Made by a program: the position numbers and the translations under genes | Notes under the pieces: generated by a model | Databases searched by the model: none | Seen by the model: only the letters and a program-made list of their open reading frames with translations | Told to the model about the DNA's origin: nothing | Part shown: positions 40,355 through 52,275 of the stretch, in pieces | Position numbering within the stretch: the first letter of the stretch is position 1 | How the letters are laid out: the number at the start of each line of letters is the position of its first letter | IMG/VR virus record: IMGVR_UViG_3300045971_000895 | Location: 1 to 64,000 of that record | From: a virus | DNA length: 64,000 bases | Strand: one strand, 5' to 3'

Positions 40355-43300
40355 ATGCTCTCCAGTAACGACGTAGCCGCGATGTTCTCTGCTCAGGGCC
40401 AGAACTTCGCCCAGCAGAACTACTACGCGCAGACGGTGGGGATCTCGAACCCTGCCATGTCCATTGGGGCCTACCGGGGCACGGGGATCCAGAGCGGCTT
40501 CCAGCCGGCGGGCCCTTCCTTCCCTGGCGTGCGTCCCCCGCCTCCTTCCTTCAGCTACGCCAACGGTGGAGCGTTCGGTCCGGGCTACGGTTCGGGCAAC
40601 AACGTCGCCGGGCACATGATGTCGGGCATGGGGGCCGCAGCCACTCTCGGCGGCATCGGCATGGGCATGATGATCCCCGGCCTCGACCCCATCTCCGGGT
40701 TCATGGGCGGGATGAAGGCGGCAGGCGGCTTCGGTATGCGCGGCGTGATGGGCGGCATGGGCGCCGCCGCTCTCCCCCTTGCTGGCGCGATGCTGGCTGC
40801 TCACACCGTCGGGTCCTTCGTCGGTGGCGGCCAGCAGCAAGCTCAGATCGCCAACCAGCTCGGCGGCTTCCAGTTCAACAATCCTGCGTCACGCACCGGC
40901 CAGGGCTTCACCCGCCAAGACTCCAGCGACATCGGCAGCTCCATCCGCAGCATGGCCCACATCCCGGACATGCTCACCTCCGTGGAGGAGCTCACTCGTC
41001 TGCTGCCCACGATGCGTCGGGCTGGTGTGATGAGCGGGGTGAAGGACGCAGCCGAGTTCAACCGGCGATTCAAGGAGACGGTCACCACCCTCCGCGACAT
41101 GTCGAAGATGATGGGCACCACGATGGAGGAGGCTTCTCAGTTCTTCGAGCACAACCGGCAGATCGGGATGTCGGGGAAGACGTCCCAGCTCCGCAACACC
41201 CTCAACGCCCAGTTCACCTCCGGCATGACCGGGATGACGATGGGCCAGACGATGGGCATGCAGCAGGGCGGAGCGCAGATCGCTCGCCAGTTCGGGGCTC
41301 GAGGTGCTTCGGGTGCTCAGGGCGTCACCAACATGGCGCAGGGGATCCAGGGCGCGCTCGAGGCAGGCTTCCTCGACCAGGACACGCTCACCGACGTCAC
41401 GGGGCTTCAGGGCGCGGAAGCTGTCGGCGCGGCATCACAGAAGATGTACGGCTTCATGGCCAACCTTTCGCAGACAGCCCCCGGCCGCCTCATCATGGCT
41501 GGCGCGATGACGAGGGGCAAAGACGGCAAGGTGAAGCTCGACGAGGAGCTGATCAAGAAGCTGAACCGCGGTGAGATCACCGTCGACCAGCTCAAGGCCC
41601 GTGCGGGCAGCCTGTCAGACAACGACAAGATCAGCTTCGCGGCCAACGCCAAGAACCTCGGAGGCCAGTTCGCAGGACAGGTCGACCTTCCGAAGTTCAT
41701 GCAGGGCCTCGTCGGGGGGAAGGGACAGGAGGCGGCAAGCCTTCTCCTCCAGCAGTACTCCGGCGGCCAGATGTCGGAGTCCGACGTCTCGCTGATGACG
41801 TCCATGGGCAAGGGCAACCAGGGCGTCGACATGGAGAGCTTCAAGGGCGTCCGCAGCCGCGAGATGCAGATCCGGGAGAGCACCGACCCCGAGATCATGT
41901 GGAAGAGGCTCAAGACCAAGATGCACAACGCCACGTTCGGTCGCGCCGAGAAGGCGGGTGCGGACGTCTACTCCTCCATCGGCAAGATGTACGACAACTT
42001 CATCGACGACTTGGTTGGTCGCCACGTCGTCGCGCTCTCGAAAGAAGGAGCGAAGGCGCTCCAGCAGGGCATGTCCGGAGCGGGCGGCAAGGAGATGCGG
42101 GACATGTTCGCCGCGGCCCACGGCCTCAAGCCGGGCTCCGACATCGGCAGCAGCTTCGGGGAGAGCGGCTTCGCCAACACTGTGCGTGGCTGGGGAGCGG
42201 CCTCTGGCACGTCCGGACTCACCTCGTTCGGACAGAACAAGCAGGCAGCCGGTCTGGTCGGGGCCGGCGGGTCCCTTCTCGCCAAGATCAACGACCTCGC
42301 AGACTCCGGGCGTCTCGTCACCGCCGCAGGCAAGGCCTCCGCGGAAGATCTTCGTATGCTGAAGGTCAAGATCAACAAGGACACGGGCGGGGGGTTCAAC
42401 GAGGCTGACCATGATGTGAGGTCGCAGATGACTCGGGAGGGGATGGCCAAGGTCATCGCTGCCTCGATGCGCGAGAAGGGCTACGGCGTTACCTCCAATG
42501 GTGACGACGGAGTGGCCGACCTCGAAGGCATGCTCCTGAGCGGAGACACCAAGGGCATCGAAAGCCTCACTGGGAAGTCGATGGCTGACCTCGGGGCCGA
42601 CCTGGGGGACACCGCAGGAGGCCGCTTCGTGCGGACTGGGGTGTCCCACCGGACGGAGAAGGGCGGCCTCATGAACGACTTCCTGAGCGGCGCTCTCCAC
42701 TCCACCGAGCAGAACGTCATGAAGGTCAGTGCGCGCGAGGCCGCCGGAGGGAGCGCTGTCTCGAAGTACATCAAGACCCGAGACATCGATTCCCTCCGGA
42801 AGGATGCCGAGTCCGAGCTGGGCAACCTCTCGGGGGACAGCCGGGCCATCGTTCGTGGGAGCGCCAACGTTCGGTCCATCGCCCTTGGGATGCTTCAGAG
42901 CAAGACAAAGAAGGACCAGATCGAGGCCATCCTCCACGGCAACGACAACGGGGAGGATCGTGCTCTGGCGCTGTCCAAGATCGGAGTGGCCGTCAGTTCG
43001 CAGGAGGCTGACCAGCTCTATCAACTCACGTTGGACAGCGGCTTCACGAAGGCGGAGAAGGGCATCTCTATGTTCCACGCCGCTGGTGCCCTTGGAGACA
43101 AGTGGATCGGCGAGAACAAGATGGGAGATGTCGCGAAGGGTCTCCGCGAAGGAATCGGCGCTCTGAAGGAAGGGGAGAAGGGGTCTCCGGAAGCGGGCAT
43201 TGCCGGAGCCCTCTCTACTGCCGCGAGCGCCTACAGCGCGGACTGGAACGACAAGACAGCGAAGGGGTGGAAGGGCGCTCTTCAGAAGACCATCGCCAGC

Positions 43301-43816
43301 TACCAAGGGGCAGATGACGAGGGGAAGAAGAAGCTGCTCAAGGCCCTGGGCCCTGCCGCCGCTGCCGCCATCCAAAGCGCGGCTGGAGTCGAGAAGAACC
43401 TCTCCGGTCTCGAAGGCTCGCAAGTCACGATGGATCAGCTTGTTCAGCGGGGGATGAGCCCTGGAGAAGTCCTCAACGCAGCCCCAGGGGCCGCGGAGAA
43501 CGGCGTCAACCTCACTCCCTCCATGATCTCGAAGCTCGCCGGCTCTCGTGCTGCCTCCGGCCTTGCTGGAAGCTACGGCGCAAAGGAGGGTGCGGCGGAG
43601 ACTGGTCGCGAGATGGTCAAGGTACTGAAAGACATCTCTGCGAACTCCGACAAGTCGGTGGCCTTGATGACTGTCGTGGCGGCCCAAGCGATCGGTCTCA
43701 ACATCCAAGGCGACGCAAACGAGACCGTCAACTCTCTACGCGCCAACTACGGCAAGGAGAAGAACACCCCCGGGCTGACCTTGGATGACGTCAAGAAGAA
43801 GATAGGGATGAAATGA
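40355..43816 (+). CDS. large Gly/Met/Ala-rich virion protein (tape-measure or internal-protein-like)
   Basis: 1153 aa; Gly/Met-rich N-terminal 150 aa, then a long alpha-helical Ala/Gly/Lys-rich region; heads the plus-strand structural block. Confidence 0.6.
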   Translation: MLSSNDVAAMFSAQGQNFAQQNYYAQTVGISNPAMSIGAYRGTGIQSGFQPAGPSFPGVRPPPPSFSYANGGAFGPGYGSGNNVAGHMMSGMGAAATLGGIGMGMMIPGLDPISGFMGGMKAAGGFGMRGVMGGMGAAALPLAGAMLAAHTVGSFVGGGQQQAQIANQLGGFQFNNPASRTGQGFTRQDSSDIGSSIRSMAHIPDMLTSVEELTRLLPTMRRAGVMSGVKDAAEFNRRFKETVTTLRDMSKMMGTTMEEASQFFEHNRQIGMSGKTSQLRNTLNAQFTSGMTGMTMGQTMGMQQGGAQIARQFGARGASGAQGVTNMAQGIQGALEAGFLDQDTLTDVTGLQGAEAVGAASQKMYGFMANLSQTAPGRLIMAGAMTRGKDGKVKLDEELIKKLNRGEITVDQLKARAGSLSDNDKISFAANAKNLGGQFAGQVDLPKFMQGLVGGKGQEAASLLLQQYSGGQMSESDVSLMTSMGKGNQGVDMESFKGVRSREMQIRESTDPEIMWKRLKTKMHNATFGRAEKAGADVYSSIGKMYDNFIDDLVGRHVVALSKEGAKALQQGMSGAGGKEMRDMFAAAHGLKPGSDIGSSFGESGFANTVRGWGAASGTSGLTSFGQNKQAAGLVGAGGSLLAKINDLADSGRLVTAAGKASAEDLRMLKVKINKDTGGGFNEADHDVRSQMTREGMAKVIAASMREKGYGVTSNGDDGVADLEGMLLSGDTKGIESLTGKSMADLGADLGDTAGGRFVRTGVSHRTEKGGLMNDFLSGALHSTEQNVMKVSAREAAGGSAVSKYIKTRDIDSLRKDAESELGNLSGDSRAIVRGSANVRSIALGMLQSKTKKDQIEAILHGNDNGEDRALALSKIGVAVSSQEADQLYQLTLDSGFTKAEKGISMFHAAGALGDKWIGENKMGDVAKGLREGIGALKEGEKGSPEAGIAGALSTAASAYSADWNDKTAKGWKGALQKTIASYQGADDEGKKKLLKALGPAAAAAIQSAAGVEKNLSGLEGSQVTMDQLVQRGMSPGEVLNAAPGAAENGVNLTPSMISKLAGSRAASGLAGSYGAKEGAAETGREMVKVLKDISANSDKSVALMTVVAAQAIGLNIQGDANETVNSLRANYGKEKNTPGLTLDDVKKKIGMK

Positions 43817-44016
43817 GAGAGATCATCGAACAGGATATGGTTGTCGATGGGAAGGTCGTTCGCGTGACCCTCATCAACGACCCCAACATTGACGACGTCC
43901 TCATCGGCGAGTCGCAGGACTACGCTTATGGTCTCTCGAGTGGTACGACTTCCCCGGACCGCCGAGTGGTGAGAAGCGTTCGCGAGATCTTCCTGATGTT
44001 CGGGGTGCAGCGATGA
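43813..44016 (+). CDS. hypothetical small protein
   Basis: ATGA overlap. Confidence 0.4.
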   Translation: MREIIEQDMVVDGKVVRVTLINDPNIDDVLIGESQDYAYGLSSGTTSPDRRVVRSVREIFLMFGVQR

Positions 44017-44025
44017 GGAGTTCCC

Positions 44026-45465
44026 ATGGCTGCTAGCGCCGCAACGAAGGCCACGGCGAAGGCCAAGCCGTCGACGCCAGCGAAGGTCAACGGCCCCGCC
44101 CTGATGAAGGTCGGAGTTCCCCCCGAGCGCTTCACGAAGGCAAACCAGAGTACGTCGTGGGCCGCTCGAGGGATGGCCAACGTGCGAAGGCCTACGAATG
44201 GCATCACTCTGCGGGAGGAGACCTTCGCGTCGATTCGCGTAGTGTCTGGGGACGGGATCAACCAGAAGATCATCGACGCCGGTAGTCGCCTCAAGGACGG
44301 GACCAATCCTCTCCAGGTCACGGTCGGAGACAAGACCTACGTCGCCAACGAGACCTACTCGAACTTCCTCCTTCAGAACATTGCAGAAGAGCGCAACGAG
44401 AAGGTGCAGGTCCTCGAAACCTTCGGCGAGCCTTACATCTTCCTTTACGGGGAGAGGCCGCGCATCTTGAACTGCCAGGGCATCTTGCTCAACACCTTCG
44501 ACTTCAACTGGGAAGCCGAGTGGTGGGCCAACTACGACAACTTCCTTCGTGGCACGAAGTGCGTCGAGAACGATGCTCGCGTCTACCTCGCCTTCGACAA
44601 CACCCTGGTCGGGGGCTACATCCTCTCTTCGAGCGCCACAAAGAACTCGCAGGAGAGGCACTTCGTCCAGTTCCAGTTCCAGCTCTTCGTCACCTACTAC
44701 GAGAGCTTCTCCAACCTGGGGGACCCCTACGTCGCCGGCAGCGACACCCCCAGCTTCCCCGTCAATGACGCGACCTTCGCTTCGGACCGTCCGAAGAACC
44801 CCATCGACTGGGCCTTCGAGTCTGGGGTTCGGGTCGTGGTAGGCCCCGACGGAGAGACGACGACGGCGATGACCCTCGAAGGGGCAGTTGCCGCAGCAGC
44901 GCCCAGTACGCTTGCGGCCGCATGGCGTGCCGTTCAGCAGACTACTCGTTCCGTCTTGAGTACCGCGTCCCAGGTCTGGGAAGGCGAAGTCATCAAGGTG
45001 CCTGATGGTTTCGCTGGGATGTTCGCCTACGACGAGCCCGTGGCGGTGAAGGAGTCGGGGCTTCAGACTGCGAAGATCGTCACCTACACCACCTTCTCCG
45101 AGAACGATGCCGAGTACGTGGGCTTCAGCTCTCATTACGGATCCTCGGAGCTTCGCTTCGACTCTCTCGATAGCGGGAGCTTGGCCGTTCAGTACGGTGA
45201 GAGTCAGCGCGCGTCCAAGCAAGCCGCTGACTTCTTCTTGGAGAATGGAATCATCCCGGGCTCCGGTGTTACCGAGACGCTCGGCAAGATCGTGAAGGTG
45301 GCCCGTGCAGCCCTGGTTGCTGTGAACGCTGCTACCGCCATCGCTGTGTTCGCTCGTCGAGGGGTTCAGCCCGCGGCCCCAGACATGACTGGCTCGGTCT
45401 TCAACTGGAATGACAACTACGGCGGCGCCCTCAAGCGATCTGCCAGCAACTCCTACCCGGAGTAG
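44026..45465 (+). CDS. virion structural protein (distal-tail or baseplate candidate)
   Basis: 479 aa; position after the large protein; beta-rich composition. Confidence 0.55.
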   Translation: MAASAATKATAKAKPSTPAKVNGPALMKVGVPPERFTKANQSTSWAARGMANVRRPTNGITLREETFASIRVVSGDGINQKIIDAGSRLKDGTNPLQVTVGDKTYVANETYSNFLLQNIAEERNEKVQVLETFGEPYIFLYGERPRILNCQGILLNTFDFNWEAEWWANYDNFLRGTKCVENDARVYLAFDNTLVGGYILSSSATKNSQERHFVQFQFQLFVTYYESFSNLGDPYVAGSDTPSFPVNDATFASDRPKNPIDWAFESGVRVVVGPDGETTTAMTLEGAVAAAAPSTLAAAWRAVQQTTRSVLSTASQVWEGEVIKVPDGFAGMFAYDEPVAVKESGLQTAKIVTYTTFSENDAEYVGFSSHYGSSELRFDSLDSGSLAVQYGESQRASKQAADFFLENGIIPGSGVTETLGKIVKVARAALVAVNAATAIAVFARRGVQPAAPDMTGSVFNWNDNYGGALKRSASNSYPE

Positions 45466-45555
45466 CCCCTGTCCGCCATCGGCAAACCACTTCGCCTCCG
45501 GCTCTTCCTCGAGGGCGTCGAGATTCCCATCGTCGCGGCTCAAGTCTCGATCGGG

Positions 45556-48543
45556 ATGAACTCGCCGGCAGCGGCAGCTCTTCAGGTCGTTCCTACAGAT
45601 GCCGGGCTCTACCTCCGACCGCGCACAATGGTGCACCTCTTCTACCTCGACGAGAGGGTGACGGAGACGAAGAGTGGTCGGTCGGTCAGCCGCACGCTGC
45701 GGGACTACAGACTGCTCTTCTGCGGAGAGATCGTTGCCCAGTCGATGCAGCAGACGCCGCAGAGCCGTGGCTTGGTGCTCCAGTGCATCGACTTCTCCTC
45801 CTACTGGGACTCTGCCCACCTGACCGCCATCGAGTACGGGCCCGGCGGCAACTGGGCCACCCACTCGGCGGCGCTGTCAGGGTCCAACGCCGGCCTTGTG
45901 GACGACATCGTCAACCAGATGCCGGAGAAGTTGGTCCAGTGGCTCAGGCAGACCCCTCGCACGCCTGGGTTGGCGACGGTCGATGGCCTGGCCGGTGGCA
46001 TCATCCGCATGCTCGAGGCCATTGGTGGGGTGCCGGGGCACGAGCGCGGGGTGAACGACTTCTTCACGGTGGCCGAGCTGCGCTGCAAGCTGCTCCAGCA
46101 GATCACCGCCGAGGAAGATGACAACACCGCCTACAGGCTGCTCAAGGGCAAGGTCTTCGACGAGTGGGTGCGTAGCGGGCTCTCGAACATGGGGCAACAG
46201 GTCACGTTCCGCGACGTGATGAAGCTGCTCTTCCAGTACATCTACTACGAGGTGGTCCCCAACCCTGCCGCGAAGTACTCGCCGGCGGTTGGGGAGGGAG
46301 GGTCGAAGACGAACACGGGTACCTCTTCTCTTCTGAAGACCTCGGAGGGCGGGAGCGCCAAAGTCACCATCTCCGGCGTCATCCAGGACATGGGACTCTT
46401 CGTTGGGACCACCGAGGCTTCCGGGGACTGGAAGAACTACCTCTCGGCATTCTCCTCGCTAATCGCCGGAGCCAAGAAGAAGCTTTCGAAGCTGACAAGC
46501 GGAGAGATCGGGAAGGAAGCGCGGCAGGTGACGAGCTTCTTGGATGCGGCGTCTCAGAAGCTCGATGCCACCATGAAGGGGATCAAGCCGGGCATGTCGG
46601 TGGCCGGGTTGCCTGAGACGGGGCAGAGCCTGGATGCGGAGCTCAAGGCCATACTGGAGCCGTTGAAGTCTGCCCTGGAACTCATCACGAAGAGCCAGGA
46701 CCATGCGTACTCGGTCACCTACTCCACGGCGAGGACCGAGCGGCTCGGTTCACAGATCATCCGGCCCGACTGCTGGTTCGCTCCACCACCGGTATGCAAC
46801 GTCGTCTTCCCGGAGCAATACACTCAGCTCCAGTACGACAGGAACTTCCTCGGAGAGGTGACACGCACGCTGGTGTGGATGAGCAACACGCTGGTGGGGC
46901 CCGACAAGTTGCTCGCGGACAAGGTGCTTGCCCCGAACCCCACTTCATTCAAGGACACAGGATTGATGGGCGTGAAGGGTAGCTTGGGCTACCGGGAGTT
47001 GATGCCGCATGAGTACCACACAGGGATCGTGCCTCGCGAAGAGTGGCTGCCGAACACGGCGGCGACGTCGGCGGAAGGGCAGAGGCCCGCGACGGAAGCG
47101 GCGGGTTACGGGGATGTACTGTCCTGGGGTCAACGGACGGCGCTGTACCTCTTCTACAAGTACCGGTTCGCCCAGCGCTCAGCCTCCCTCGGCGGCCGGT
47201 TCAATCCTGGCCTCGTCTGCGGGTTCCCTGCTCTCGTGATTCGAGGACCGTACTCGCCCCCGGCCATGAACCTCACGGAGGCGCTCGACAACGCGGACGC
47301 GCTCGGCGCTCCTGTGCACCTGCTTGGCATGATCGGAACGTTGAGCCACTCCGTGGGGCAGGATGGAGGGACGTCTTCCTTCTCGCTGCACCACGTCAGG
47401 CACCACAACGGTTCCGACGATGAGTACCTGAACCTCATCAGAGGTCTCCGCACCACCTCCCATACCTACGAGGAGGACTTGTCTCTCGCCAAGATCAACG
47501 CCATGCCGGCGGGGGCCGACAAGAAGAAGAGGCTGGACTTCCTCGTCGGCTGCACCACACAAGGGAACACGCCACCTCCTCCACCCGTGGCCAAGGCGGA
47601 CGCCAAGGGCGGCAACTTGGTAGAGGTCGAGGAGTCAGACGACCAGATCCCACCAGATGGCACCACCAAGTCTGGGAGGGTCTACATCCCGACCAACTGC
47701 CGCATCAAGAGAGGGATGCCCGGCCTCTACGGCAAGGGGAAGGTCGCCTCCATCATCGTGGTGAAGCCCACTCGGAGCAAGGTCGATGGAGGTCTCGCTT
47801 TCGACCAGGTGAAGGTCTCTTGGGTGCAGGACCAGGAGCTGCCGGTGGCGCAGCCCATCGAGCTCATCCTTCGCCCCAGGTCCTGGTTCTCGCCGAAGTA
47901 CTCCAACGAGCTCGTGGGTCAGGAGATCTACCAGCCCTTCTTCGGCTGCAACTCCATCATCGACGAGTTCAAGGCGACCGTTGGAGACACCTCTTCCTCG
48001 CCAGATGCGCCGGCAGCCGTCGAGGAGGACGGGAAGTACAAGCTCGACTCCTCGACCACCACAGTCGAAAGCGCAGAGCTCAACTACGCCGACAAGATGA
48101 AGCACAGCGTGGAGCGCTCGGCCAACGCTCTTGCCTACCTCTACGGCAAGGTGAAGGAGCTGCGAGGGGACGTCGAGGACTTCATCCAGCAGTACACCTA
48201 CCGCCCCATCGCCACGAAGGAAGAGATCCTCGGGTCGGATGACCTCGAGTTCGACGTCTTCACCAACGGCTCGGTGGAGGCCAAGACGGTGCAGGCTCCT
48301 GGGGGTGTCGGTCCTCCCTACGTCCCGACGGTGGGCTTCCACAGCACGGCGGTCCACCAGCAGATCGTGGAAAGCAAGGTCCCGCTGGCCGGGCTGGTGA
48401 AGGACTACGCCACCAAGCTCACCCGCATCAACTCAACCGGGCAGCCCACGGAGATCCAGGCGAAGTACGACGTGCGCCAGGACAAGCGGGGCAGGGTGAT
48501 GGACTACTACACCTCCCTGAGCAAGAGAGGCCTCAGAGGTTAG
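45556..48543 (+). CDS. large virion structural protein (tail-tip, baseplate or hub candidate)
   Basis: 995 aa. Same frame as the previous gene, with only one TAG between them; no Shine-Dalgarno before the annotated ATG. Confidence 0.6.
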   Translation: MNSPAAAALQVVPTDAGLYLRPRTMVHLFYLDERVTETKSGRSVSRTLRDYRLLFCGEIVAQSMQQTPQSRGLVLQCIDFSSYWDSAHLTAIEYGPGGNWATHSAALSGSNAGLVDDIVNQMPEKLVQWLRQTPRTPGLATVDGLAGGIIRMLEAIGGVPGHERGVNDFFTVAELRCKLLQQITAEEDDNTAYRLLKGKVFDEWVRSGLSNMGQQVTFRDVMKLLFQYIYYEVVPNPAAKYSPAVGEGGSKTNTGTSSLLKTSEGGSAKVTISGVIQDMGLFVGTTEASGDWKNYLSAFSSLIAGAKKKLSKLTSGEIGKEARQVTSFLDAASQKLDATMKGIKPGMSVAGLPETGQSLDAELKAILEPLKSALELITKSQDHAYSVTYSTARTERLGSQIIRPDCWFAPPPVCNVVFPEQYTQLQYDRNFLGEVTRTLVWMSNTLVGPDKLLADKVLAPNPTSFKDTGLMGVKGSLGYRELMPHEYHTGIVPREEWLPNTAATSAEGQRPATEAAGYGDVLSWGQRTALYLFYKYRFAQRSASLGGRFNPGLVCGFPALVIRGPYSPPAMNLTEALDNADALGAPVHLLGMIGTLSHSVGQDGGTSSFSLHHVRHHNGSDDEYLNLIRGLRTTSHTYEEDLSLAKINAMPAGADKKKRLDFLVGCTTQGNTPPPPPVAKADAKGGNLVEVEESDDQIPPDGTTKSGRVYIPTNCRIKRGMPGLYGKGKVASIIVVKPTRSKVDGGLAFDQVKVSWVQDQELPVAQPIELILRPRSWFSPKYSNELVGQEIYQPFFGCNSIIDEFKATVGDTSSSPDAPAAVEEDGKYKLDSSTTTVESAELNYADKMKHSVERSANALAYLYGKVKELRGDVEDFIQQYTYRPIATKEEILGSDDLEFDVFTNGSVEAKTVQAPGGVGPPYVPTVGFHSTAVHQQIVESKVPLAGLVKDYATKLTRINSTGQPTEIQAKYDVRQDKRGRVMDYYTSLSKRGLRG

Positions 48544-48595
48544 CGTTCCCAACCCACGGGGCCTGGTGTAACGTGCCCAGAAGAGGAGACTTCGC

Positions 48596-49249
48596 ATGGA
48601 CCTGAACGACATCCAGCAGCTGGCCTTCCAGGACGAGTTTCACAAGATCGCCAAGTCGAAGAACGTGGCGAAGAACCTCGCACGGATCATGAACATGAGC
48701 CCGGCCAAGATCCATGGGGATGCGCGGCTGAAGTGGGCCACTTACCGTGGCATGGCTCACGACCTCGGTCGCCCCGAAGGCAAGCAGCTCGCGCTCGCAG
48801 GCAAGGGCAGCGTCGTCGGCACCAAGGGCTCGAAGTCTTCCCAGTTCGGGCAGAACTCGAAGGAGCGGGCCGACGAAGTGATGTCGAAGATGAAGGAGTA
48901 CAAGGGCCGCGAGACCCCCTACAAGCTCGACCCCAAGGGCCGTGACGCGGTGGACAAGGTCAAGAAGGCCGGCGAGTCCCGCATCGGCCGCAAGCCCATC
49001 GGCATCGAGAAGCTGCTGGAGAACGAGGCCGAGGTCACAGGCCTCCCCGAGAACTTCACCGTGGCCCCCGAGCTGGTCGAGACCGCCGAGACGGCGGCCA
49101 AGGCCCTCGTGAAGATGGCTCTCTCCTCGACGGCCTCCAAGCGGTTGGGCCTCCTCGCGGCCGGCGGCGCCGGCGCCCTCGTGGCGCGGCAGGCCAAGGA
49201 AGACCACAAGCTCGGTCGGATGGTCCGCAAGCAGCAGGGCCAGCAGTAG
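48596..49249 (+). CDS. hypothetical protein
   Basis: 217-aa ORF. Confidence 0.5.
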   Translation: MDLNDIQQLAFQDEFHKIAKSKNVAKNLARIMNMSPAKIHGDARLKWATYRGMAHDLGRPEGKQLALAGKGSVVGTKGSKSSQFGQNSKERADEVMSKMKEYKGRETPYKLDPKGRDAVDKVKKAGESRIGRKPIGIEKLLENEAEVTGLPENFTVAPELVETAETAAKALVKMALSSTASKRLGLLAAGGAGALVARQAKEDHKLGRMVRKQQGQQ

Positions 49250-49262
49250 CACCGGAGGTCTC

Positions 49263-49886
49263 GTGTACCGAGAGGTCCTCCACGGCGCGTTCCTGGACGA
49301 GCTCCAGAAGATCAGCGAGGTGAGCCTCGCTGGTCTCTCGCATGAATCCGTCCAGCGACTGGCAGCCCCAGCGCAGCCGATGGAGACCGCGGGTCTCACG
49401 AAGGCCCTTGCCGTGCTCGCGCGTTACGAGGGGATGCCGAAGATGGCATTCGTCAGCGGCGTCTCGAACCCCGAACTCCCGCAGATGCGGAGAGTGACCG
49501 GCATCAAGCGGGGCAAGAAGAACGACAAGGGAGCGGTCGAGCAGGGCAAGAACCTGGCCGGCTACACCGCCGGGGGCTTGGGCATCGGTCGCCTCGCCGG
49601 ATACGTGGCACACGGCCCACACGCCGCGATCACCGAGGCCGCGAAGAAGTCGGCTCACGGCAAGATGTGGTGGGGCACCGTGGCTGGCGGCGCTCTCGGA
49701 GCGGCGGAGTACGCGCGCAAGCGGCTCAAGGAACGGAAGGCTGCCGGTCAAGAGAAGAAGGCTGCCCTCGTCCCCACCGTGCAATCCCCTGCGAAGCAGC
49801 TGCACTACGGCCAGCAGACGGGGAAGACCCAGGCTCGCGGTCTGAAGTCTGGTCCCTCCATCCACCGTCTCGCCACCAAGATCTAG
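49263..49886 (+). CDS. hypothetical protein
   Basis: GTG start behind GGAGG. Confidence 0.5.
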   Translation: MYREVLHGAFLDELQKISEVSLAGLSHESVQRLAAPAQPMETAGLTKALAVLARYEGMPKMAFVSGVSNPELPQMRRVTGIKRGKKNDKGAVEQGKNLAGYTAGGLGIGRLAGYVAHGPHAAITEAAKKSAHGKMWWGTVAGGALGAAEYARKRLKERKAAGQEKKAALVPTVQSPAKQLHYGQQTGKTQARGLKSGPSIHRLATKI

Positions 49887-49895
49887 GAGACCACC

Positions 49896-50429
49896 ATGAA
49901 GCTCCGCCTCAAGAAGACCGCTGGTCGCTACGACACCGACGCCCCCTACCAGTCGGCGCACGTGCCCAGCGTCCCCGAGAACATGGCCTCCCAGCGGGAC
50001 CGCGAAGAGCTCGACCGGTTCCACACAACCCTGGACTCCCGCGTGGACACTCAGGCGACTCTGAAGAAGCTCTTCGGCTACGCCACCACCTCCCGTGAGA
50101 AGGAGCGCGCCAAGGCGAAGAAGCTCTTCACGCAGGCAGGCGTGGCCTCCACCAACTCTCCCGGCCTCCAGCCGAACGTGCTGGAGACTCCGGCGCTCGA
50201 GTCGGACGCCGGACAGGCTCCTGCCGTGAAGACTGCCTCGATGGAGCCGGCCTACTCGATCACCCCGCGCATCGACGCCTGGTTCGAGAAGAACGCCAGC
50301 TCCCTCCTCACCGAGGCGCAGCGGCGCTACCCCGAGCTGCTGAAGGTGGCCGCCATCCCGTCTCCGACCCTGAAGAAGGGGAAGAGCACTCCGGCCGTCG
50401 CGAGCAGCCTCTCTGGCGGCAGCGCCTAG
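49896..50429 (+). CDS. hypothetical protein
   Basis: 177-aa ORF. Confidence 0.5.
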   Translation: MKLRLKKTAGRYDTDAPYQSAHVPSVPENMASQRDREELDRFHTTLDSRVDTQATLKKLFGYATTSREKERAKAKKLFTQAGVASTNSPGLQPNVLETPALESDAGQAPAVKTASMEPAYSITPRIDAWFEKNASSLLTEAQRRYPELLKVAAIPSPTLKKGKSTPAVASSLSGGSA

Positions 50430-50433
50430 CGCC

Positions 50434-51297
50434 ATGATCGAGGTCTCGGACACAAGTCCGGACCTGGACTGGGTCCTGGGGAAGCTCGCGGCCGCCAAGA
50501 AGCAGGCGCCCGTGGCTTCCCCTGCGGCTTCTCCAGAGCAGAAGAAGCTGGACCTCCGGGCGAAGCAGCCGAAGGAGCTCGAACTCTGGAAGACGTGGAA
50601 GGATGGGGGCCAGAAGCCTCACCTCCTCGAGCCTCTCCTGAAGTCCTTCGCGCCCCTCATCAACTCGCGCATCAACCTCTACAAGAGGGCGGAGATCCCC
50701 ACCGCGGCGCTCGAGCAGGAGCACCACAAGTGGTTCTTGAAGGGGCTTCAGACCTTCGACCCCTCCAAGGGCGCCGCGCTCAACACGCACCTCACCACCA
50801 ACCTGAAGAAGGCCGGGCGGTGGATCGAGGCCAACAAGAACTTCGCGTACATCCCCGAGAACGTCTCGCGCAACATCGGCGCATACAAGGCGTTCAAGGG
50901 AGAGCTGGGTGAGCGTCTGGGGTACGAGCCGGACGACAAGACCATCCTCGACTTCGCCATCAAGGAGAAGCACCCGAAGCTGGGCGTGCTCTCCTTGAAA
51001 GACATCAAGCGCATCAACACCGACCAGCGCAAGGGCCTCATCGAGAAGGGGCATGAGGACGACCTCCTCTCCAACAGCACCGTCGACCCGCGGGAGGTCG
51101 AGGTGGCGCACCTCATCATTCCGCAGCTCACCCCACAGGAGCGGCTCGTCCACGAGCACACGCTGGGGCTGAACGGGAAGGCGCAGCTCAAGCCTGGGGC
51201 CATCGCCAAGAAGCTGAAGATGGACAACTCCAAGGTGGCGAAGCTGCGCTCTTCGATCTGGAACAAGATGAAGCCCTACCTCGGGACAGATCCATGA
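50434..51297 (+). CDS. sigma-70-family RNA polymerase sigma factor (regions 2, 3 and 4)
   Basis: Region 2: FLKGLQTFDPSKGAALNTHLTTNLKKAGRWI. Region 3: RNIGAYK. Region 4 HTH: LTPQERLVHEHTLGLNGKAQLKPGAIAKKLKMDNSKVAKLRSSIWNKMK. Confidence 0.65.
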   Translation: MIEVSDTSPDLDWVLGKLAAAKKQAPVASPAASPEQKKLDLRAKQPKELELWKTWKDGGQKPHLLEPLLKSFAPLINSRINLYKRAEIPTAALEQEHHKWFLKGLQTFDPSKGAALNTHLTTNLKKAGRWIEANKNFAYIPENVSRNIGAYKAFKGELGERLGYEPDDKTILDFAIKEKHPKLGVLSLKDIKRINTDQRKGLIEKGHEDDLLSNSTVDPREVEVAHLIIPQLTPQERLVHEHTLGLNGKAQLKPGAIAKKLKMDNSKVAKLRSSIWNKMKPYLGTDP

Positions 51298-51500
51298 CGA
51301 AGATAGAGCGACTGACTCGTCTCCAAAAGGCCACCGACGACTACGTGGACCAGGAGCTGAAGCGCATCGACGAAGAGGTGGTCGTCCTCGAGGACGTTCT
51401 GAAGGCCCGTCGCGCAGGACAGGGGGCCGCCACAGATGCAGTTGCTCCCGCCAGCGCGATCGCAGAGGCAGACCTCGATGCGTACTTGAGGGGAGCGTAA
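51294..51500 (+). CDS. small protein downstream of the sigma factor (anti-sigma or regulator candidate)
   Basis: ATGA overlap with the sigma gene. Confidence 0.4.
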   Translation: MTKIERLTRLQKATDDYVDQELKRIDEEVVVLEDVLKARRAGQGAATDAVAPASAIAEADLDAYLRGA

Positions 51501-51502
51501 TC

Positions 51503-51826
51503 GTGGAGGAACTCTTCCAGCTCATCATCAAGTCCTACGGGCTCCTCGGGCTCGTCATGCTCTCGCCCTTCGTGGCGCTGAAGTTCATGTGGAGCCACGC
51601 CAAGGACCTCCAGAAGGACTTGAAGGCGGCCAACGAGCGGATCAACGAGACGCACTCCCGCCGGGTCGAGGACTCGAAGGAGATTGCCGACAAGCTCATG
51701 GAGATGATCAAGGAGCACGCCGAGCTCTCGAAGGAGACCAACATCGCCCTCGAGCGAGTCGGCGACATGCTCTCTGTGCTCCAGAACACAGGCGTCAGCT
51801 ACATGAGGCACAACGGGGGACGTTGA
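51503..51826 (+). CDS. membrane protein (one N-terminal transmembrane helix)
   Basis: GTG start; hydrophobic N-terminus GLLGLVMLSPFVALKF. Confidence 0.45.
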   Translation: MEELFQLIIKSYGLLGLVMLSPFVALKFMWSHAKDLQKDLKAANERINETHSRRVEDSKEIADKLMEMIKEHAELSKETNIALERVGDMLSVLQNTGVSYMRHNGGR

Positions 51827-51837
51827 GAGGATGAGTC

Positions 51838-52017
51838 ATGCACTACGGACGAAAGCAGTCATCTGCTTTGCACCTCCAGCCCCCTGAGCTGGAGTCCGAT
51901 CCCAAGCTGAAGCTCGCCATGGAGTCCATGGACCAGCTCATCCGCGCGGCCAAGGCCAACCGGACAAAGGTGAAGGAGCTCGAAGTCCAGATCGCGAACT
52001 TCACCAAGCAGAGGTAG
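51838..52017 (+). CDS. hypothetical 59-aa protein (absent from the ORF track)
   Basis: ATG behind a GAGAGGA Shine-Dalgarno; high GC3; read directly from the sequence. Confidence 0.3.
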   Translation: MHYGRKQSSALHLQPPELESDPKLKLAMESMDQLIRAAKANRTKVKELEVQIANFTKQR

Positions 52018-52020
52018 CCG

Positions 52021-52275
52021 ATGTTCTTCCAGCGGTGGAGGGCCGAGCGTAAGGCTCGGGAAGAGACGAAGCGCCGGCTCAGGGAGGTCGTCATCACTGC
52101 GACCGCCATCAAGGGCCTCGACATTCCCCTCAAGGAGCCGACCGAGGAGCAGTATTCGGCCACCGCCTCCTTCGCCATCGTGAAGAAGTCTGTCGAACAG
52201 GCCACGGAAGCAAAGCGCACCGCCAGAGGTGCTGCCCAGCGTATTCTGGGGATGTTCGAGAAGACCAAGAAGTAG
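52021..52275 (+). CDS. hypothetical protein
   Basis: 84-aa ORF. Confidence 0.4.
   Translation: MFFQRWRAERKAREETKRRLREVVITATAIKGLDIPLKEPTEEQYSATASFAIVKKSVEQATEAKRTARGAAQRILGMFEKTKK

Follow-up and report, generated by a model that had tools for sequence, protein, structure and literature searches.

A conserved CTG as the probable start codon of a baseplate hub gene behind an in-frame TAG in an uncultivated phage

The 64,000-nt viral sequence analysed here (the window; positions 1 to 64,000 of the IMG/VR record IMGVR_UViG_3300045971_000895, part of a phage genome of ~200 kb) contains two large structural ORFs in one reading frame, separated by a single TAG and 90 nt that offer no canonical start codon. 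This arrangement raises the question of whether the two ORFs are joined by read-through of the TAG or represent separate genes and, if they are separate, where the second gene begins. The features of the locus are collected in Table 1.

Table 1. Features at and around the junction (window coordinates)
Feature	Position	Strand	Basis or remark
Context ORFs	40355..44016	+	1153-aa ORF (40355-43816), then conserved 67-aa ORF (43813-44016)
Upstream gene, 479 aa, tail-tube fold, putative baseplate tube initiator (Pvc7/Afp7/Mu-baseplate-like)	44026..45465	+	ORF, AF2, Foldseek
GGAG Shine-Dalgarno core	45459..45462	+	Within the last upstream-gene codons, 6 nt before CTG 45469
TAG, genuine stop of the 479-aa gene	45463..45465	+	Equivalent stop in relatives is TAG, TGA or TAA
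Baseplate central hub gene (gp27/Mu gp44/VgrG-like fold), re-annotated at 1024 aa	45469..48543	+	Homologs, AF2, Foldseek
CTG, proposed hub initiation codon	45469..45471	+	Aligned with homolog starts
Hub codons 2-29 (supposed spacer)	45472..45555	+	Code for three beta-strands in the hub's N-terminal domain
ATG, internal Met30 of the hub rather than its start	45556..45558	+	ATC in L002/L046; no upstream Shine-Dalgarno core

Coding status of the 90 nt

The initial annotation had placed the TAG and the ATG at 45556 in the same frame, and this was confirmed on the sequence, the two codons lying 93 nt apart. The 30 codons between them (45466-45555) translate to PLSAIGKPLRLRLFLEGVEIPIVAAQVSIG. As had been stated, they contain no ATG, GTG or TTG, and the program's ORF begins at 45556. 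The reported lack of a Shine-Dalgarno sequence ahead of this ATG was also reproduced, GGAG, GAGG and AGGA being absent from the preceding 20 nt. A 30-codon open stretch is in itself unremarkable in DNA of 63.5% GC.

The earlier impression that the gap is biased in GC3 and looks coding was borne out. The GC content at codon positions 1, 2 and 3 is 0.73/0.43/0.80 in the 30 gap codons, compared with 0.59/0.45/0.85 in the whole downstream ORF. Among the window and two relatives, 10 of the 12 variable columns in the 90 nt fall on third codon positions (binomial P = 5e-4). Furthermore, the encoded peptide can be aligned to the N-terminal sequences of ~110 homologs of the downstream protein, which read M-SAIGKPLxLRLFLEG where the window reads L-SAIGKPLRLRLFLEG, and this N-terminal segment is the best-conserved part of the family. 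Because of this conservation (the open frame alone would be insufficient), the comparative evidence identifies the 90 "intergenic" nt as coding, namely as the real and conserved 5' beginning of the downstream gene, which encodes a predicted baseplate hub.

The predicted structure agrees with this assignment. In the AF2 model of the hub (pLDDT 78.4, pTM 0.74), residues 11-60 reach a pLDDT of 93-95, and the first three confident beta-strands (residues 11-14, 17-19 and 21-29) are encoded by the supposed spacer.

It is thus highly improbable that hub translation begins at the ATG at 45556 and that the 90 nt form a non-coding spacer. This ATG is the first canonical start in the frame and is used by one public annotation (P0121, 995 aa). 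However, the 90 nt evolve as coding sequence, align with homolog N-termini and belong to a confidently modelled domain, while the ATG lacks a Shine-Dalgarno core. In addition, L002 and L046 have ATC (Ile) in its place, so that in these relatives the next in-frame ATG lies 24 codons further downstream, within the conserved domain. Most homologs have V, I, L, T or P in place of Met30. The comparative data already contradict this ATG as the start, and the public calls of 995 or 971 aa are N-terminally truncated, with the first 29-53 residues, and with them the first strands of the hub domain, missing. Work built on these calls would use a truncated hub protein.

Position and conservation of the hub start

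Of 120 hub homologs, 111 have a start codon of their own at the corresponding position, 5-9 residues ahead of an L.LR.F.EG motif. A start at CTG 45469 would place the window protein 7 residues ahead of this motif, inside the range of the homologs, and the start Met of P0003 (MSAIGKPLNLRLFLEG; MSAIGKPL...) falls exactly on this CTG. The closest outgroups carry conventional starts at the same position: GTG in L003 (GGAG TAG TC GTG) and TTG in both L007 (GAGG TAG AAC TTG) and L041 (GGGG TAA CCA TTG). Therefore, a single T/G-to-C change would yield the state seen in the window.

The arrangement GGAG-TAG-CCN-CTG is kept in four sequence variants, represented by the window, L001 (94% nucleotide identity), L045 (90% nucleotide identity) and L002/L046 (56% amino acid identity), and the downstream ORF is intact in the CTG-bearing variants. 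The GGAG core is conserved in L001, L002 and L003. Its 6-nt distance from the CTG matches the usual Shine-Dalgarno usage of the window, where GGAG, GAGG or AGGA is found at a spacing of 4-10 nt before 11 of 22 unambiguous starts, compared with 12% of random positions. The initial annotation had overlooked both the GGAG directly 5' of the TAG and the CTG. Variation in the codon preceding the CTG (CCC/CCA) is likewise confined to the third base, which is uninformative on the exact start.

One contig from IMG/VR, one from ENA and two from JGI metagenomes, assembled independently from different samples, carry identical junctions. An error of sequencing or assembly behind the TAG or the missing start codon, which had been listed as an alternative, has nothing in its favour beyond the oddity itself, and the recurrence of TAG-CCN-CTG in independent assemblies effectively excludes it. 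Since the CTG is kept in related genomes, it represents neither an error nor a pseudogene.

Initiation at another near-cognate codon of the gap, either ATC 45478-80 or the downstream ATT 45523 or ATC 45529, was also considered. In E. coli, ATC, ATT and CUG initiate at similarly low levels (10.1101/063800), and L001, L002 and L003 all keep ATC 45478. Nevertheless, such a start is unlikely. With a start at ATC 45478, the GGAG would be 15 nt away, beyond the 4-10 nt observed in the window, and only 4 residues would remain ahead of L.LR.F.EG, fewer than in all 111 homologs. In L003, the gene starts at GTG and contains the equivalent ATC as an internal codon. Starts past ATC 45478 would remove confident, conserved strands.

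The CTG at 45469 combines the homolog start position, a functional Shine-Dalgarno spacing and conservation of the codon itself, and we infer that it is the codon actually used. Altogether, the locus very probably contains two separate, translationally coupled genes, the second of which, a hub gene of 1024 aa, begins at a conserved weak CTG. With the real beginning of the hub gene at the CTG, the junction represents a mis-called gene start and not a read-through fusion. Of the interpretations first offered for this junction, the fusion is not supported, while the alternative of a non-canonical start inside the gap is, with CTG 45469 as that start.

Read-through and suppression of the TAG

The initial annotation had favoured programmed read-through or suppressor dependence, giving a fusion of ~1500 aa. 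In such a scheme, TAG 45463 would be decoded through a leaky context or a suppressor tRNA, and the fusion of the two proteins would be either the sole source of the hub or a minor product. Several features fit: one TAG is all that interrupts the frame shared by the two ORFs, a C follows this stop directly, the gap offers no canonical start, and the in-frame TAG-NNN is kept throughout the clade of CTG-bearing relatives. Against this, a fused homolog was not found among the matches listed, where hub homologs (n = 315) measure 888-1218 aa and homologs of the upstream protein (all 120) 430-557 aa. When a chimeric junction sequence was used as the query, no match spanned both halves and none covered >54%. 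The relatives outside the CTG clade all carry their own ATG, GTG or TTG at the aligned position, and the frame relation is not conserved, with ~21 of 33 loci out of frame; the close outgroup L003 is one of these because its spacer is 2 nt. The junction stop may be TAG, TGA or TAA, depending on the locus.

The comparison of fused and split states in relatives, which the initial annotation had itself proposed, gave a split state. Because the homologs are two clearly separate genes, this is the outcome it had named as speaking against its own interpretation. With hub starts present at the aligned position and neither frame nor stop conserved, the read-through fusion is not supported as the explanation of the locus, and we consider it very unlikely.

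Reassignment of TAG, or dependence on a suppressor, is likewise not supported by the window. TAG is not avoided in the window: the stops of 53 crudely predicted genes are TAG in 18, TGA in 31 and TAA in 4, and a suppressor would therefore extend many proteins. The large genes of the window are intact under table 11, and ARAGORN found no tRNA in these 64 kb.

A combined use of the junction in the CTG clade can also be envisaged, in which most ribosomes would stop at UAG-C and restart at CUG, while a few would read through and produce an initiator-hub fusion with a structural or assembly role. If true, this would explain why the clade keeps an in-frame 3-nt spacer together with a very weak start, but we regard it as a long shot. 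In a less exotic variant, the conserved CUG would be a selected device that sets the hub:initiator ratio by reinitiation.

Tail-module context, coupling and comparison with known systems

The 479-aa gene is preceded by a GAGGAG Shine-Dalgarno sequence 5-7 nt upstream of its start, and the C-terminal ...YPE* of the protein is kept in L001, L002 and L003. The AF2 core of its product (residues ~65-230) has a pLDDT of ~85, and the best Foldseek matches in the PDB are baseplate chains of PVC/AFP, tail tube proteins and Mu baseplate chains, suggesting that the protein is probably a baseplate tube initiator. For the hub model, the PDB matches reach a Foldseek probability of 1.0 with E-values of 5e-9 to 1e-3 and include hub/spike chains of AlgoCIS, Anabaena CIS, PVC and AFP, and further Mu gp44 (1wru, 9ki1_G), T4 gp27 (1k28_D) and VgrG. 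At the thresholds used, no Pfam or PHROG family was matched by the hub, and a profile search against PDB sequences returned coiled-coil noise only. By predicted fold, the downstream protein can be classed as a baseplate hub resembling gp27, Mu gp44 and VgrG; by sequence, it belongs to no curated family.

Upstream of this pair, the 67-aa ORF overlaps the stop of the 1153-aa ORF (ATGA). Neither matched a Pfam or PHROG family, and by its size and position the 1153-aa ORF may be considered a tape-measure candidate. The order of ~1100-1180 aa, 67-74 aa, ~450-480 aa and hub is also present in L002, L003 and L038-L043. The hub thus adjoins a tube-fold initiator downstream of a tape-measure-sized gene, as in a tail module.

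Across ~33 loci of the family, the distance from the upstream stop to the hub start ranges from -4 to +20 nt, a conserved close spacing of the kind associated with translational coupling, and 3 nt is a common distance. With the CTG start, the gap in the window is 3 nt and fits a tightly packed block; with the ATG start, it would be 90 nt. We propose that translation of the 479-aa gene would terminate at the TAG and that of the hub gene would start three bases on at the CTG, driven by the GGAG core that lies 6 nt ahead of it. Ribosomes that finish the 479-aa gene would probably help hub initiation and so couple the two genes. Given the weakness of CTG as a near-cognate start, the hub would be expected to be made in fewer copies than the initiator, and the weak start may in this way tune stoichiometry.

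The main value of these findings lies in annotation. The locus adds a conserved CTG start, cleanly supported by comparison, at a tightly coupled gene junction of an uncultivated phage, and it could serve to test how structural-protein stoichiometry is set by weak starts and reinitiation. Additionally, predicted folds (tube initiator and central hub) are assigned to two large unannotated families whose metagenomic members number in the hundreds. The junction does not reveal new recoding biology.

In known read-through systems, an extension lacks its own start and the in-frame relation is conserved. The A1 protein of Qbeta is made by UGA read-through, and the window shares with it one in-frame stop between structural coding regions. 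In contrast, the hub family has its own starts and variable frames and stops, and fused forms were not found among the matches listed.

Both folds match those of Pvc7-Pvc8, Afp7-Afp8, the Mu baseplate proteins including gp44, and T4 gp48/gp54 with gp27. The gene order, from a tape-measure-sized ORF to a tube-fold protein and the hub, is shared with contractile tails and injection systems. Unlike those pairs, the pair in the window has no detectable sequence similarity to Pfam, PHROG or PDB families, and the hub, at ~3x the length of gp27 or gp44, carries large helical insertions in the AF2 model.

Coupled phage and operon genes (ATGA, TAATG, stop-N3-start) share with the window the 3-nt stop-start gap and a Shine-Dalgarno sequence inside the end of the upstream gene, and the junction is similarly tight throughout the hub family. 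The restart codon in the window, however, is CTG and not ATG, GTG or TTG, and dependence on upstream translation is a likely feature suggested by this layout.

The initiator tRNA reads CTG as a weak near-cognate start codon, and the RepA protein of plasmid P307 (RepFIB replicon) starts at CUG. An annotated CTG start is that of ORF10 of Bacteroides phage phiB124-14 (PMC3338817). All 64 codons have been measured as starts in E. coli, with CUG initiating at ~1-2% of AUG in reporters (10.1101/063800); this makes it a poor initiator in E. coli and is a point against the proposed start. The start proposed here is of an uncommon but already known kind, sharing with these cases a near-cognate CTG at the start site, a normally spaced Shine-Dalgarno sequence and the lack of a canonical alternative. 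It differs from them in being predicted from sequence, with comparative support from homologs that carry ATG, GTG or TTG at the aligned codon, in its conservation down to 56% protein identity, and in its location 3 nt past the upstream stop in a pair of structural genes.

Coding status of the gap between the two structural genes

The 479-aa gene, encoding a putative tube initiator, ends at a TAG (45463-45465) that shares one frame with ATG 45556-45558, as confirmed on the window sequence. The 30 sense codons of the 90-nt gap between them translate to PLSAIGKPLRLRLFLEGVEIPIVAAQVSIG and contain no ATG, GTG or TTG, so that a mechanical ORF list begins a 995-aa ORF at 45556, a codon that also lacks a preceding Shine-Dalgarno core. 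Additionally, the gap is gene-like in composition, with GC of 0.73, 0.43 and 0.80 at codon positions 1, 2 and 3, respectively. Thirty open codons at 63.5% GC are not significant alone, and the question therefore turns on comparison with relatives. L001, a 94%-identical relative from IMG/VR, has the same TAG and differs from the window by five substitutions within the 90 nt, every one third-position and synonymous. With the 56%-identical L002 included, 12 columns of the gap were variable, and 10 of them fall at third codon positions (binomial P = 5e-4). This substitution bias and the alignment of homolog N-termini bear out the impression, recorded in the initial annotation, that the gap is coding. 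A promoter and terminator scan of 43500-49500 revealed no promoter-like or terminator-like site inside it.

Start of the hub gene and its relation to the upstream gene

A database search with the extended, CTG-started hub protein returned 315 homologs. Most are 1000-1140 aa long and align over the full query (100%), the extension included, with N-termini of the form M-x-x-(x)-GKPLxLRLFLEGxExPV... The start lies 5-9 residues ahead of the conserved L.LR.F.EG motif in 111 of the 120 listed homologs; initiation at CTG 45469 places seven residues before the motif, within this range, and the Met of homolog P0003 (MSAIGKPLNLRLFLEG) aligns exactly on that codon (45469-71), the L of P-L-SAIGKPL. ATC 45478, the next near-cognate codon, is an unlikely start, as it leaves only four residues before the motif, outside the family range.

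The hub N-terminus is cut off by automatic gene calls in nine of the 120 listed homologs. These were considered as further non-canonical starts and rejected: the six inspected carry a canonical GTG, ATG or TTG where expected, so that CTG is seen only in the window's clade, and the truncations look like a systematic fault of start calling where the two genes are tightly coupled.

The junction in the window reads ...CCC GGA G TAG CCC CTG TCC GCC ATC GGC..., with GGAG 6 nt ahead of CTG. GGAG TAG CCN CTG is kept in all four distinct variants (window, L001, L045 and L002/L046), and its recurrence in independent assemblies speaks against the sequencing error that had been considered. ATG 45556 cannot be the conserved start, since L002 and L046 have ATC in place of the equivalent codon. 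The nearest outgroup, L003 (50% amino acid identity), reads GGAG TAG TC GTG, with GTG at the CTG position, and its 2-nt spacer therefore sets its upstream and hub genes in different frames. Other relatives show GAGG TAG AAC TTG (L007), GGGG TAA CCA TTG (L041) and GGAG TGA CCT GTG (L043). Across about 33 family loci, the distance from the upstream ORF end to the hub start ranges from -4 to +20 nt, TAATG, ATGA and TAGTG overlaps are frequent, the two genes lie in different frames at about two thirds of the junctions, and TAG, TGA and TAA are all used as stops. Because frames and stops vary in this way, the shared frame of the two genes in the window is a by-product of the common 3-nt coupling spacer; the window's clade is peculiar only in that its start codon begins with C instead of T or G. 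L047, one of three metagenome matches to the DNA pattern, was discarded as a chance match.

Shine-Dalgarno use was assessed on 22 unambiguous starts in the window, defined as those whose first canonical start codon follows the preceding stop with no more than eight codons in between. GGAG, GAGG or AGGA was found 4-10 nt upstream in 11 of them, compared with 12% of random positions, and the neighbouring tail genes carry gagggaggggcATG, gaggagttcccATG and taggagaccaccATG. GGAG-N6-CTG fits this pattern.

The reading first proposed for the junction, stop-codon read-through or a suppressor-dependent fusion, was not borne out: the homologs are separate genes, their frames vary, and the 64-kb window holds no detectable tRNA, suppressor tRNAs included. 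The split state was observed throughout the loci compared, and no fused form appeared among the search matches. No protein matched more than 54% of a chimeric query built across the junction, in a search with only 12 matches and not exhaustive for fusions; full-length searches were therefore run from both sides, and these also contained no fused protein, with hub homologs of 888-1218 aa and upstream homologs of 430-557 aa (120 listed). Furthermore, L003, in which read-through would not lead into the hub frame, shares the upstream C-terminus ...YPE*. Stop codons were counted on a crude gene list filtered to GC1 > GC2, which removes antisense ORFs with high GC3. With 18 of the 53 crudely predicted genes ending in TAG, this codon serves as an ordinary terminator in the window, and reassignment was rejected on this usage. 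Low-level TAG read-through in addition to CTG initiation is very improbable, and no observation requires it.

At the level of sequence, these comparisons establish the initiator and hub as two separate genes and place the predicted hub start no more than one or two codons from 45469. The alternative offered in the initial annotation, a non-canonical start codon inside the gap, is the one upheld: the putative start CTG 45469 sits where homologs begin and is preceded by a Shine-Dalgarno core, a conserved arrangement.

Folds and genomic neighbourhood of the two proteins

Pfam and PHROG scans gave no match for the 479-aa, hub, 1153-aa or 217-aa proteins, the ones examined from the putative tail/baseplate block. 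A PDB sequence search found nothing for the 479-aa protein, and the hub profile returned coiled-coil noise only. Megablast and tblastn against INPHARED phage records were also empty, so an annotated relative for comparison is absent.

The AlphaFold2 model of the CTG-started hub (49-sequence alignment) reached pLDDT 78.4 and pTM 0.74, with pLDDT 93-95 over residues 11-60; strands 11-14, 17-19 and 21-29 sit within the supposed spacer. A Foldseek search of the PDB matched central hub and spike proteins (probability 1.0, E down to 5e-9), including those of AlgoCIS, Anabaena CIS, Streptomyces CIS, PVC and AFP, as well as Mu gp44 (1wru, 9ki1_G), T4 gp27 (1k28_D) and VgrG. The window hub, at 1024 aa, is roughly three times as long as gp27 or Mu gp44. 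Long helical insertions were observed at model residues ~290-410 and 840-1020, and these produce weak coiled-coil matches when the hub profile is searched against PDB sequences. The 479-aa model is weaker (pLDDT 59.5; ~85 over core residues ~65-230), and its core matches PVC and AFP baseplate tube-initiator chains, tail tube proteins, cyanophage A-1(L) "baseplate-initiators" and Mu baseplate chains. Hundreds of unannotated members of the two families come from metagenomic contigs of 100-210 kb.

Between the window and L001, the hub is 94% identical and the adjacent 479-aa protein only 72% overall (64% over the C-terminal 230 residues). So uneven a divergence on the two sides of the junction points to mosaicism or to more rapid change in the C-terminal half of the initiator.

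The gene order, a long tape-measure-sized ORF, a ~70-aa ORF, the tube-fold protein and the hub, is kept in all loci inspected; the small ORF keeps its place and its length (67-74 aa) in all related loci. The phage genome of ~198 kb also encodes a class II ribonucleotide reductase, a helicase, an AAA ATPase and a collagen-like fibre.

Coordinates of features in the window and of junctions in related loci
Feature	Coordinates	Strand	Remarks
Vault-like protein, 879 aa	5201-7840	-	Major-vault-protein-like; Pfam MVP_shoulder (PF11978, E 6.8e-28, aa 559-668), Vault_3 (PF17795, E 1.5e-9); no PHROG match
Putative tail/baseplate block	40355-52275	+	Two modelled proteins (hub, 479-aa) have recognisable folds
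67-aa ORF	43813-44016	+	Overlaps 1153-aa ORF stop (ATGA)
Putative tube initiator, 479 aa	44026-45465	+
Gap	45466-45555
Hub gene	45469-48543	+
Collagen-repeat tail-fibre-like protein, 1533 aa	52352-56953	+
GT2 glycosyltransferase, SAM methyltransferase and GT1 glycosyltransferase fusion, 1061 aa	57028-60213	+
B12-binding radical SAM protein	61199-62836	+
Junctions in L038-L043	~1930-2001 in each; L042 at 1290-1446		Canonical start 2-9 nt past upstream stop, mostly stop-NNN-start

Proposed initiation at CTG and known precedents

CUG would be read by the initiator tRNA as a near-cognate codon, and ribosomes ending at the UAG, 3 nt before it, probably start again there by translational coupling. 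Structural operons of phages routinely couple genes in this way, with stop and start close together. A weak CUG would lower the ratio of hub to upstream protein made, which is plausible for baseplate stoichiometry; in such baseplates a trimeric hub lies under a hexameric initiator ring. For annotation, the hub gene should run 45469-48543 (1024 aa); the public gene calls P0001 (971 aa) and P0121 (995 aa) both lack part of the N-terminus.

In bacteria, CTG is permitted as a start codon but seldom used, and CUG initiation in E. coli reporters reaches ~1-2% of AUG (10.1101/063800). CTG starts are occasionally annotated in phages, for instance in phiB124-14 ORF10 (PMC3338817). Since CTG starts and tight coupling are already known, the junction is of a known kind: a well-supported new instance of the rare CTG start and not a recoding event.
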